From: Octopus vulgaris
Lineage: Eukaryota
DNA length: 64,000 nt
Assembly: GCA_951406725.2 (NCBI GenBank)
Contig: OX597827.1
Span: 35,154,001-35,218,000, forward strand
Direction: 5' to 3'
Shown: positions 4,671 to 38,972 of the stretch, one piece after another
Numbering within the stretch: position 1 is the stretch's first letter
Layout: each line of letters starts with the position of its first letter
Program-made: the position numbers and the translations under genes
The notes under the pieces: model-generated
Seen by the model: the letters and a program-made list of their open reading frames with translations, nothing else
What the model was told of the DNA's origin: nothing
Database searches by the model: none

Positions 4671-5162
4671 CTAGCAGTATCGCCCGGCGTTGCTCGGGTT
4701 TGTAAGGGAAATAACTATATAAGCATTTTTAGAGAGTTACTTCCCTTATAGATGCCAATTCGGGCTTTCTTAGCCATTTCTGTTTTGGTGACTTCAAGCC
4801 ATGAAGTCGTTGTTCTAAAAGAACGCTGGTCTCCTTGACAACGCTTTACGACGTTGATTTCCTTACACTCCCTTCCCTACAGCTTCACGAGGGAGGGAAG
4901 AAGGGGGAGAAGCAAACAGGTGCAGATGTGAGCGTGGACGCCAACTCCGCCGCCATCGACACACGATGCATTTTATGCATTAAAATGGAATAAAAAATGA
5001 TGTTAAATTATTTTTAAAATCGTAGACTCATCGTAGACGCGCGCTAATAGCCAGACGGGCTCAATATGAATCACGACTATAAGATACTCGAATTTGGTTA
5101 AACTGCACCGCAAAATGTGGGAGTAGTTAGGAGTCTAAATCGAAGGAGACAGACACTCACAC

Positions 5163-5170
<8 letters not shown>
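4671..5170 (-). mobile_element. Non-autonomous Helitron (~500 bp)
   Basis: Minus-strand 3' end cccgagcaacgccggg hairpin + CTAG, inserted in (TA)n; near-identical copy at 6058-6550; shares ends with the helicase-bearing element at 24345-25185. Confidence 0.85.
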
Positions 5171-5215
<45 letters not shown>

Positions 5216-5641: not shown

Positions 5642-5744
5642 TTACTAGCTCGGCGGTACATATTCTAAAATTGGAACGATACAGAGATTAGCATGCCCCT
5701 GCACAAGGATCACACGTAAATTCGTGAAACGTTCCATATTTTTT
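5642..5744 (+). pseudogene. U6: U6 snRNA pseudogene (full length, diverged)
   Basis: ctcggcggtacatattctaaaattggaacgatACAGAGAttagcatgcccctgcacaaggatcacacgtaaattcgtgaaacgttccatatttttt; 3-nt deletion after the ACAGAGA box, 1-nt deletion in the ISL, several substitutions. Confidence 0.93.
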
Positions 5745-6013: not shown

Positions 6014-6060
<47 letters not shown>

Positions 6061-6828
6061 TCTAGTTGTGTGAGTGTCTGTCCCCTTCGATTTAGATTCC
6101 TAACTCCTCCCGCATTTTGCGGTGCAGTTTAACCAAATTCGGGTATCTTATAGTCGTGATTCATATCGAGCCCGTCTGACTATTAGCGCGCGTCAACGAT
6201 GAGTCTACGATTTTAAAAATAATTTAACATCATTTTTTATTCCATTTTAATGCATAAAATGCATCGTGTGTCGATGGCGGTGGAGTTGGCGTCCACGCTC
6301 ACAGCTGCACCTGTTTGCTTCTCCCCCTTCCCTCCCTCGTGAAGCTGTGGGGAAGGGAGTGTAAAGAAATCAACGTCGTAATGCGTTGTGAAGGAGACCA
6401 GCGTTCTTTTAGAACAACGACTTCATGGCTTGAAGTCACCAAAACAAAAATGGCTAAGAAAGCCCGAATTTATAAGGGAAGTAACTCTCTAAAAATGCTT
6501 ATATAGTTATTTCCCTTACAAACCCGAGCAACGCCGGGCGATACTGCTAGTATATATATAATAATATTAGGGAGTATAACTCCAAACTTACAGGGAGAAA
6601 TATATTAAAAAAAAATTATATACATATATTATTTGTTATTTATGTATTGGTTTATGTCTATCACTGTTAGAGTTCCATAATAGTGGTTTTTATCTCTAAT
6701 TCATATTTTATATATATACGACGGGCTTCTTTCAGTATCCGTCTTTGGTCGGCCCGAGGCTATAGTAGAAGACATTTTCCCAAGTATGTATGTATGTATG
6801 TATGTATGTATGTATGTATGTATGTATG

Positions 6829-8250: not shown

Positions 8251-8340
8251 TATCAAATGGGATGGAAGAACAATCACGGGTTTAATAAAACGAATATATA
8301 TTTCATTTGTGATTTTATTTCTAAAATTCTTTGTTTGTAG

Positions 8341-8699
8341 CAACCAGCCTGTATCCTCTCGTTACCACCAACACCACTGAAATCACAATTACGAGCAACA
8401 CCGGACCCGCGGAGAATGTATCAGATGAAACACTTTGTTCATGTCCTTGCAATAAACCGATGAAGAATTTGACACGCAAAGAAGTTCTTGAAAAACTGAA
8501 TCAACTTGCGTCTGAGTTAACTATTCCACGCAACACGACATCAAAGTACAAACGGTCCAAAATCAGTGCGCCGGACGAGAGAGAATCTTCATTATATATT
8601 AGTACTTTTATTGTAATAATCGTCACAATACCGTTTACCTTCATAATCCTCCTTGATTTAATTCCACTTTTAAAGTGGCTCCTTGTAAAGTGTATGTAA
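8341..8699 (+). CDS. Terminal exon of gene 1: Thr-rich stalk, CxCPC...SAPDER motif, transmembrane helix
   Basis: Acceptor ttgtttgtag, phase 1; CSCPC..LEKLNQLASELTIPRNTTSKYKRSKISAPDERESSLYISTFIVIIVTIPFTFIILLD, resembling a tail common in uncharacterised mollusc membrane proteins; TAA at 8697-8699. Confidence 0.85.
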
Positions 8700-8965
8700 A
8701 AATATTTGGTCACATAAAATATAACTTGTAACATTTCATAGATATATCACCTCTATGTGCATTATGATATTTTTAAATTATAGATTCATCTTTTCTTATT
8801 AGAATATCTATATACCAATGTATATATATATATATATACATGTGTGTGTGTATATATGTCTATATATATGTATATATATATGTATATATATATATATATA
8901 TATATTACGGAGATGTACTTGCATAGCAAGTGACCTGATCTGAGATCATGAGCTGAAACAAAAGC

Positions 8966-9238
8966 AATTGCAGCATGGAAGATGTTTATAAGCCATTTAA
9001 AAACACACAAAAACCGTTAGATTCACCTCAACATTTAAATTTAATTTGTCCAAATATTTTCGTCACTTTGAGACCTCGACCTGTTCACTGACAAAATTCC
9101 GTGCTGAATTTTGTCAGTGAACTGGTCGCAGTTTCAAATCGACGGAAATATTTTGACAAATTACATTTAAATATTGAAGTCAATCTAACGGTTTTTGTGT
9201 GTATTTAAATGGGTTATAAACACCTTCTACGCAACAAT

Positions 9239-9239
<1 letters not shown>
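8966..9239. repeat. Long imperfect foldback (134-bp arms, 6-nt loop), probably Penelope-derived
   Basis: 8966-9099 is the reverse complement of 9106-9239; the unit lies between (TA)n tracts. Confidence 0.9.
9045..9095 (-). ncRNA. Hammerhead ribozyme variant with G3-C8 core swap
   Basis: Minus strand: tttgtca GTGAACA g gtcg..tgac GAAA atat TT ggacaaa. Confidence 0.6.
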
Positions 9240-9283
<44 letters not shown>

Positions 9284-9745: not shown

Positions 9746-10560
9746 ACGGTGGTGGGGCGATAGAATGGCTGTATACTGTCAATCTAACAAGAACGTGACA
9801 GTAGGGGGTACACCACCGTTGTATAGCCCTAGGAGGCATCGAACGCCTCCTGACAGCTTCGACACATCGAACAAAAGTTACCTGTGTAACCCAGAGAACA
9901 ATCCATCAATGTCTGAGGAGTTTCAGACTGAAAGCATACAAACAACTCGAGATGAAATCTTGCTTACCAGAATCAACCAGTCCATATCCGAAAATGGTGC
10001 AAGCCCAAAGTGCAGATTTGTGACCAATATGATGAAATGATAGACCATCTTATTTCAGGCTGTCTGGTTCTGACATCAAATGAGTATAAGAATCACCATG
10101 ACAGAGTAGGTCAATACCTGCACTGGAAACTCTGTAATCAGAGGAAAATGAAATCAGCCATCAACTGGTATGAACACCGCCCAGAGTTAGAAATGGAAGG
10201 AGGTAACATAGCAATACTTTAGGATTTTAGTTTGCACAGAACTGACAGTTCAAGTAAGTAGACCAGATATCATCAAGGATAGGAGAGATAAGACCTACAG
10301 ATTAATTGATATGAGTACCCATTCAGATAATAACGAGTCAGTAAAAGAATTTGAAAGAACTAAGTACAAAGTGTTATAGATGGACATTGATAAGATGTGA
10401 CATCTTATAATCGAAGATGTGTCCACTCATCATAAGACATTTAGGTATGGTAAATAGTAGATGTAGAAAAAATCTTAGCAATTTCTCAAGGGAATCATCT
10501 TTCCAGGAAATTAAAACAAGCACTGCGCTTTTATTATAAAGAGCCCTCTTGATGTAAATA
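9746..10560 (+). mobile_element. R4/Dong-like LINE derivative: structured leader plus CCHC and RLE region
   Basis: PKCR/ICDQYDEMIDHLISGC..EYKNHHDRVGQYLHWKLC..WYEHRP..IL*DF..RPDI..LIDMS. Confidence 0.8.
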
Positions 10561-11759: not shown

Positions 11760-13146
11760 TTCTAGTAGTTTACTTGGTTCATGTTTATACCATTTATCAG
11801 TATGTTCAAATGCTAGCTTTCTACATAAATCCCAGTTGATTGCTCTCCCTAGATTGCCCTTTTCTTGTATTCTTTCTGTGCCAGCATATTACATTCACTT
11901 ACTATATGAGTAACGCTTTCTTCTTTTGATTTCCAGAATCTACATTGGGAATCTACTTGTTTTTGTCTATCTTAGCTATTATCCAATTAGTTCTTAATGC
12001 TAGATCTTGTGCAGCCACTAACAAACTTTCTGACTCCCTCTTCAGCTTTTCTTTCTGCAGCCATATCCATGTCTCACTCCTACTATTTGCTGCAACTGTC
12101 TTTGGAAATCTACCATGCAAACCCTGCTCCTGCGATTCAGATAGTTTCAGTTCCTTTTTCTGGTTTTTAACTTCGTTTTGATTTTTGATTGCCTTGTGTC
12201 TTGCTTTGACTCTAGCAGCTTTTAATAAACTTTCTTCGCTATTACCTACATAGGAGTCTATATCTACTCTAGCTAACTCCACGCAGTCTTCTACTGATAT
12301 TAACCCCCTTCTGCTTTCCTTTCTAGGTAAGTATAATTTTGCTACTCCTGCCCTTGAATGGAGTCCTCCATCATATTGAATTCTTTCCTAGGTCAGTAAA
12401 TTAGTGTCTCCTATTTTTTCAATATCTATCCTACTGATAACAGAATCTACTTTCCTAGTCACTTCTATCAGCTTTTTTCTTCTGATACCTTTTAATGCTG
12501 GCAATCTTTTTCTTACTTCTTTACTCATTACTTCTTGCAACTCATCTAAAATCTTCTGATCTTCCTCACTTAAATCACTTAAGTCGTTGGTGCCAGTTGT
12601 CCCTTCCTTATTGGGAGCACTATTATTATTTTTTCCTTTGGGCTCTTCTTTGGTTTGAGTTGTATCTCTTATGTTGTTCTTTGTCTTTCCTACTGCCTGG
12701 TCTTTCTTTTCCAGTTCTCTTGTGATCTCTTCTACCTCTAATTTTGTCACCCACTTTATTCTAATAATATTAGCTTGATCAACTAATCTCTGCTCTGTTA
12801 CTTTTAACATACCCTTCTCTACCCAAAGTGTTAACATCCGTTTTCTATAGTCCTTTCTTTTAGGTTCATTTTCTAAGTAGCACTGCAGCACTATTTTGTT
12901 TCCTTCGCTGGTCCACTTCCTCCTCCTTACTCTATTATCTGCTGATGCTGTATTAGAATAACAGCTGTGGTCAGTCTGCATCTTTACTGAACCAATGTCG
13001 AGTGAAAGACCTTTCCTTAAAGGTTCAGCTTTATTTTCGGTGTTACAACCAGAGTTTCTACGGAAACTCCTGTCTCTCATAAACTGAGGCAAGGTCATCA
13101 TCGTCATCACTACTATTATTTTTCGACATCTGAAAGATTCAAGCAA
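11760..13146 (-). mobile_element. R4/Dong-like LINE with internal deletion of the RT core
   Basis: N-terminal RRKWTSEGNKIVLQCY..YRKRMLTLW..TEQRLVDQ (ORF 12388-13146) joined directly to LHSRAGVAKLYLPRKE, WLQKEKLKRESESLLVAAQDLAL and KWYKHEP. Confidence 0.85.
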
Positions 13147-13481
13147 CTTTCTATTGCATCATTCGTTACACCTTTGTGCTGGCGGGGTGGTATGTGCTGC
13201 ATTTTTTATGGGGAATAGTGTAATGTATCAGTACGTTTTGGGGTTTGGTTTGAGCATTGTTGCATTAGTTTTTAAATAGTATGTTGTTGCTTGTTGTTTT
13301 TGCTGTGCAGGTTGTGGTCTTCTGTCGGGTATCGGCCTTCTATGGCACATGTTGTGGATTTTGTTAATTTTCTTCAGTAATTAGAGTATGAGTTTATTCT
13401 TGTATGTTTTTGGAGGGATGTTGCATAGTAGTGCGTGTGTAACTCATAAGGCAACTATTTTATAGTATTTATGATTATCCG

Positions 13482-38700: not shown

Positions 38701-38972
38701 TGTCTGGGGAGAGTCATTTTCTTTTAGTGTCTTATAATTTCACTCACTCACCGGTAATATTTCCGCTCATTTCCTTCTTTATTTTTCTAAAATTTTCGTT
38801 GCGTCTTGCAACCTTTTCAGTAATTTTGATTCTCTTCTTTTGAGTCAGAACTATTGAAAAGGTTGCAAGACGTAACGAAAGCTTTTGAAAAATAAAGAGG
38901 AAATGAGTGGAAATTTTACCGATGAGTGTGTGAAATTATAAGGCGCTAAAAGAGAATGACTCTCCCCAGACA
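38701..38972. repeat. Long imperfect foldback containing a U3-A8 hammerhead variant (38851-38890, +)
   Basis: tgtctggggagagtcatt.. / ..aatgactctccccagaca; right arm cta TTGAAAA g gttgc aagac gtaac GAAA gc TT ttg. Confidence 0.85.

Follow-up and report, generated by a model that had tools for sequence, protein, structure and literature searches.

The insertion downstream of gene 1

The DNA analysed here is one 64-kb stretch of an octopus genome (the window), in which a foldback of two unequal, inverted arms follows the likely last exon of a gene (gene 1). We regard it as nearly certain that this foldback consists of the terminal repeat (pLTR) and the start of the open reading frame (ORF) of an EN+ Penelope-like element (PLE); it is the only copy of its PLE family in the window. 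The features at the locus are as follows.

8325..8699, plus strand: open frame with a hydrophobic segment at its end, probably the last exon of gene 1 (no Pfam match; no tie to the element seen)
8878..8904, unstranded: (TA)n target microsatellite, left side
8906..9239, unstranded: whole insertion, two pLTR/ORF-start copies head to head (the family unit matches 9109-8906 on the minus strand and 9110-9239 on the plus strand)
8906..9106, minus strand: left arm, the long "tailed" copy, from near the unit 5' end to the distal 3' end
8906..8965, minus strand: 60-nt "tail" of this arm only, codons 11-30 of the PLE ORF (the family has two 3'-end clusters)
8906..8996, minus strand: PLE ORF codons 1-30, with the ATG at 8996-8994 and a single in-frame stop (compared with the long copy L200)
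9044..9097, minus strand: left minimal hammerhead, with an intact set of core letters and damage in helices I and II
9100..9105, unstranded: apex loop and junction of the arms, with microhomology at 9106
9106..9239, plus strand: right arm, the short copy with the proximal 3' end, 5'-truncated by ~12 nt
9107..9162, plus strand: right hammerhead, G3 at 9117, C8 at 9122, with A9U (9123) and A13G (9145)
9240..9281, unstranded: (TA)n target microsatellite, right side

A sequence-only reading of this window had described a hammerhead with a swapped core (G3 and C8) in both arms, and the letters lie where it placed them. On the minus strand of the left arm, the 5' strand of helix I (9096-9089) is followed by the core GUGAACA (9088-9082, with G3 at 9088 and C8 at 9083), a bulged G (9081), a 4-bp helix II (9080 to 9062), G12-A13-A14 (9061-9059), the palindrome AAUAUU (9058-9053) and a predicted cut after U17 (9052), a weak base for a cleavage site. 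A mismatch closes helix I (9051), and helix II carries two changes. This damage, the right-arm changes A9U and A13G, and the 60 unpaired nucleotides that extend the insertion to 8906 had escaped that reading, as had the recognition that the foldback is an ordinary inverted-pLTR-plus-tail insertion of a PLE. With both A9U and A13G, the right-arm hammerhead is predicted to be inactive. Over 134 nt the two arms share 85.8% identity, and each differs from the family majority by 12 rare changes, scattered like neutral decay; the window copy is likely a decayed, inert insertion. Any target duplication is indistinguishable within the flanking (TA)n. The codons read from 8996 to 8906 are assigned to the PLE ORF because the same frame in L200 continues into the PLE protein. 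Searches of the CUGANGA type overlook the swapped core, as had been anticipated, and so do the Rfam hammerhead models, which gave no match in the 64-kb window at gathering score or at E<=10.

Other repeats occur in the window. Inverted, ~95% identical copies of a 420-bp repeat (4757-5171 and 6059-6470) flank a slightly degenerate U6 snRNA copy (5642-5743), and fragments of a retrotransposon ORF, which we take to be RTE-like, lie at 11953-13158 on the minus strand. Another foldback repeat, multi-copy among the examined loci, occupies 38776-38972 and contains a hammerhead-like motif near 38820 (minus strand) with C3/A8, which is U3-A8 at a further locus (L186).

The Penelope-like element and the anatomy of its insertions

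Upstream extension of the unit, found at 1,081 places in the genome, led to a locus (L184) where, about 1 kb upstream of the hammerhead, the C-terminal part of a reverse transcriptase (RT), a Zn (Cys) linker and a GIY-YIG domain are encoded. When 366 aa of L184 were used as a query, 34 of 114 matches were full length at 97-100% identity, which indicates that the family spread recently. A longer copy (L198) holds a single ORF of ~990 codons with the YVDD RT motif and, at its C terminus, a GIY-YIG endonuclease (PF01541, 25.5 bits against a cut-off of 22.6); this ORF gave no match to Pfam RVT_1, and its nearest named homologue is annotated as an RT-domain protein. The unit immediately precedes the PLE ORF, with which it is in frame, and recurs about 1 kb past the ORF stop. 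L200 reads pLTR, ATG, ORF, pLTR (the ORF lies between units at 4720 and 8981), and L248 is similar, the ORF being flanked by pLTRs in partial tandem. A GIY-YIG family search was set aside: it returned other PLE families, and the one locus of 30 that contained the unit held it as an unrelated insertion.

The anatomy of short insertions was studied at 86 loci chosen by core pattern, with 134 arms. The unit is ~205 nt long, and its 3' ends fall into two clusters, at 143-150 and 201-205. Among the 85 loci that were classified, 42 pair a short with a tailed arm in a foldback, 6 are foldbacks of other kinds and 37 are single-orientation copies; the layout of the 42, an inverted, 5'-truncated copy with a tail at one end, is also found head to head in four long copies (L168, L173, L198 and L208). 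Target sites, scored at 78 loci, show variable duplications and a preference for AT/(TA)n: 18 have duplications of 9-14 bp, 7 have 7-8 bp, 32 lie in (TA)n and 21 have none. At subfamily sites the two arms of a foldback agree at 264 of 313 positions, compared with 51% between loci, as would be expected if each foldback arose in one insertion event.

Arm 5' ends bear directly on the role of cleavage. Fifty of the 134 arms begin at +1 to +4, ~55 nt upstream of the predicted cut, and a single arm starts at the base after that cut; arm starts ignore the cut site, and the inserted RNA is therefore uncut. Another 36 of the 134 arm alignments begin at +16 or +26, which we read as alignment breaks or junction truncations. 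According to the available part of a preprint, non-LTR retrozymes consist of head-to-tail tandem units, each with a hammerhead (bioRxiv 10.64898/2026.07.22.740005); that layout was not found among our loci, where copies are single or head to head and 1 of 85 has two same-strand units.

Directly 5' of the unit (L138-L167), a branch-point-like motif, a pyrimidine tract and YAG precede most short-copy starts, and for this reason the 5' limit of the unit could be a splice acceptor, not a start site. The unit 5' end also resembles what we take to be Inr/DPE promoter motifs, a likeness not used as evidence here.

The 3-8 pair within and between families

We searched the genome (2.8 Gb, 227 contigs) with a 20-nt core pattern in which positions 3, 7 and 8 were free. 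It returned 7,079 matches against 0 for a reversed control, so the hammerhead core is not a chance resemblance. The sequence-only reading had proposed a family consensus as a check on the swap, and this consensus bears it out: the family is fixed for G3-C8, which 6,460 of the 7,079 core matches carry, and C3-G8 occurs in none. The remaining matches are G-G (224), G-U or G-A (177), changed at position 3 only (199, by subtraction) or changed at both positions (19). All other core letters of the family majority are canonical, and it departs from the literal core (C3-U-G-A-N-G8-A, GAAA, UH) in having G3 and C8. Sampling by upstream sequence instead of core gave the same picture: 29 of 30 such loci keep G3, with a readable TG after it, and nearly all keep C8. 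The majority sequence has helices I and II, a bulge after A9, G10.1-C11.1 and a palindromic stem III, and in folding models a young copy is predicted to form helices I and II, with the palindromes pairing on cofolding.

Covariation of the pair within the family was considered and rejected, with the 19 double changes (7 A-U, 5 U-G, 3 A-G, 2 A-A, 1 U-A, 1 U-U, 0 C-G) close to the ~13 expected under neutrality. Nor does the sharing of the swap by both arms amount to covariation, as had been argued, because the arms are copies of one family and not independent. The evidence comes instead from a sister PLE family (L254, L263 and L265), which has intact 1,312-codon frames, 55% amino acid identity and 100/100 support, and a homologous hammerhead before its ORF (4,430 genome matches). 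C3-G8 is present in 97 of 100 among the matches listed (of 4,430), and position 3 thus faces position 8 in a Watson-Crick pair in both families, G-C in one and C-G in the other. When four G3-C8 copies and two sister copies were aligned, 4 of 11 pairs had changed on both sides, namely 3-8 and one pair each in helices I, II and III; because the six rows represent only two families, each double change counts as one event, not eight. On sequence evidence, then, the core is a hammerhead with a real and compensatory 3-8 swap, as first proposed, and is of the minimal type I. Of what had been expected of the consensus, the stems are present, and 3-8 covariation is found between families and not within the family.

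Among related PLEs from metagenomes, C3-G8 was read in L330 (by script) and L328 (by eye), and U3-A8 in L329 (by script) and L332 (by eye); G3-C8 is for this reason likely the derived state. No hammerhead was recognised at 7 of the 11 metagenome PLE loci, several of which are short, and the tree with the sister and metagenome PLEs contains no named reference proteins. A descriptor scan over 1.29 Mb of loci, chosen for PLEs and hammerheads and thus not a random sample, gave family majorities of G-C, C-G, U-A and A-U and a few isolated mismatched hits, whereas reversed sequence gave 0 hits.

Two of these pairings belong to further PLE families of the octopus genome. A young U3-A8 family (L067, L068, L091, L092) has many 781-codon frames. 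An A3-U8 family (171 genome matches; L126-L137, and L081 at 2050 on the plus and 374 on the minus strand) has a 2-bp helix II and a palindromic stem III, lies downstream of a GIY-YIG ORF and occurs in head-to-head pairs; GIY-YIG coding sequence was found nearby at 8 of 13 loci. We found no natural A3-U8 hammerhead in the literature searched.

Activity of the hammerhead and its relation to known systems

We consider it quite likely that the window holds a decayed, two-armed PLE insertion from a family whose fixed G3-C8 hammerhead can still self-cleave. Judged as a separate matter, catalytic activity of the family hammerhead is predicted from its sequence with some confidence, and an engineered C3G/G8C change partly rescues a PLE hammerhead, as far as the accessible text of the reports goes (PMC11167929; PMC8495972; PMC3884650). 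Only tentatively do we propose the broader reading, in which a PLE family that was recently mobile has the first hammerhead with a natural G3-C8 pair, this hammerhead works in vivo, and it completes, with the U3-A8, A3-U8 and C3-G8 families of the same octopus genome, the four Watson-Crick pairs used by PLE hammerheads at 3-8. If true, this would mean that selection acts on cleavage in PLEs although insertion ends are not set by it, and that entire ribozyme families of high copy number escape surveys based on CUGANGA.

The best-surviving alternative, which we think unlikely, accepts the PLE origin and holds that the hammerhead is vestigial or weakly selected, with negligible cleavage in vivo. 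G3-C8 would then owe its fixation to drift in a master lineage that passed through a bottleneck, or to a promoter or splicing function of the pLTR that overlaps the motif, an account to which we give the same minor weight. The insertion ends that ignore the cut site are in its favour, as is the position of the motif, at most ~65 nt from the likely RNA 5' end. In the parts available of the two sources, the hammerhead is dispensable for insertion in vitro (PMC11167929), and hammerheads may simply parasitise PLEs (PMC8557442). The sister family carries A9C in 90 of 100 among the matches listed (of 4,430), older copies keeping A9, and a successful family can therefore fix a core-damaging change. 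An excess of G3-G8 copies points the same way: these (L031 and L339-L367; 224 matches) outnumber G3-U8 and G3-A8 together (177), and of 30 such loci 3 have G8 in both arms (2 in one arm only), so that unpaired templates may have transposed. G3-G8 copies may be a relic intermediate or may reflect recurrent change: they are somewhat more diverged (a median of 3.8% versus 2.4%) and lack the youngest subfamily marker (0 of 30 versus 25 of 81), yet they are spread across several subfamilies (in a tree that included position 8 itself). Against a vestigial hammerhead, the two transversions struck precisely the positions that pair with each other, and helices I-III are preserved by three further changes on both sides of a pair. 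All four Watson-Crick states of the pair were seen in the descriptor scan, with no mismatched state at the level of a family. Subfamily variation, moreover, affects 4 of 8 loop II positions, versus one site, compatible with a wobble pair, among the 22 unconstrained positions 44-65.

It is far less probable that gene 1 has a functional hammerhead in its 3' UTR, one that processes or regulates its mRNA. The paired part of the foldback begins 267 nt past the stop codon (8697-8699), close to the ~270 nt first estimated, and the suggestion that it lies in the 3' UTR stands as a possibility: the insertion begins 206 nt past the stop, the first plus-strand AATAAA/ATTAAA after it is at 10510, and the element may thus be co-transcribed with the gene. 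Assembled contigs, presumably from RNA runs, cover 8289-8591 in one run and none spans into the element, a coverage gap that is not informative. A role as a ribozyme there is unsupported, however, as the two hammerheads lie on opposite strands, the better one antisense to gene 1 and the plus-strand one broken at two core positions (A9U and A13G). Read-through RNA would pair both of them into a perfect-register hairpin of 134 bp (-158.6 kcal/mol), and the rare changes in each arm are scattered as in neutral decay. The window copy is likely without a role for the neighbouring gene. As for a DNA transposon of the MITE or foldback kind, bounded by terminal inverted repeats and with coincidental hammerhead-like letters, the inverted arms and TA-rich targets fit, and we nonetheless give it practically no weight, given the unequal arms, the variable target duplications (9-14 bp), a unit that is the pLTR and ORF start of an RT-endonuclease element (L200, L198) and the homologous canonical hammerhead of the sister family.

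For the preferred reading, a PLE insertion from a family with a self-cleaving hammerhead, the following course can be proposed, its two-nick and two-site priming steps drawn from the available text of PMC11167929 together with the anatomy of our insertions. The 5' end of the PLE RNA likely falls ~20 nt upstream of helix I. At an AT-rich target, the GIY-YIG enzyme likely makes two nicks, one per strand and ~12 bp apart, and the RT likely primes at both nicks from two internal sites early in the ORF, which would yield one short and one tailed arm. Both cDNAs would run to the RNA 5' end and then join head to head. The hammerhead in the 5' UTR may fold as a dimer through the palindromic AAUAUU (by extension from PMC4209133) or with help from the PLE protein; the cut after U17 would serve to trim transcripts made in tandem or to remove the mRNA cap, the inserted end being defined without it.

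Hammerheads are near-universal in PLEs and yet dispensable for insertion in vitro. The G3-C8 family, the families with the other three pairings and one damaged core (A9C) provide a natural series for testing whether catalysis is selected. They also reveal a blind spot of descriptors and Rfam, with more than 7,000 copies in one genome undetected.

No natural G3-C8 hammerhead was found in the literature searched (including PMC6765202, PMC10085705, PMC6155905 and PMC8969392, in the portions available), where the pair appears as an engineered change only; coverage of this literature is partial and priority is uncertain. Natural U3-A8 hammerheads are reported in the accessible text of PMC4209133 and PMC3088659. 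The U3-A8 variants of Perreault et al. 2011 (PMC3088659, in the text available) share natural 3-8 covariation with the octopus family; they keep the pyrimidine-purine order and differ by two transitions, whereas G3-C8 inverts that order through two transversions.

Known PLE pLTR hammerheads resemble those of the octopus family in their pLTR location, their thousands of solo copies and their opposite-strand pairs 100-700 bp apart. They are also alike in a predicted dimer and in the bulged nucleotide after A9, G10.1-C11.1 and palindromic stem III, the three sequence traits of PMC4209133, all present here. The known set includes a natural 3-8 covariant (U3-A8). It carries C3-G8 or U3-A8, in contrast to G3-C8 in octopus, where helix I is also longer (7 bp or more). 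Because of the G3-C8 core, neither descriptor of the study that described these hammerheads would retrieve the octopus family.

A close parallel in insertion anatomy is the Anolis Poseidon element PAc (Frangieh et al. 2024, PMC11167929). In the parts of that study available, its hammerhead lies at the start of the ORF or just before it, two 3' ends fall within that start, targets are AT-rich, both strands are nicked and extended, and the RNA is inserted uncut. C3G/G8C was engineered there, whereas it is natural and fixed in the octopus family; the octopus element has a tail of ~60 nt, an ORF ~57 nt past the cut site and a Zn-finger-like linker of Neptune/Nematis type. With the Neptune and Nematis EN+ PLEs with a Zn linker (Craig et al. 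2021, PMC8557442, as far as the available text describes them) it shares the RT, Cys linker and C-terminal GIY-YIG, the inverted 5'-truncated copy, the one-end tail and the (TA)n bias. Its hammerhead core, unlike theirs, is not canonical, and the likeness is one of linker, not a clade placement. The 3-8 pair and PLE hammerheads are both already established, and the octopus family extends, and does not overturn, this known biology.
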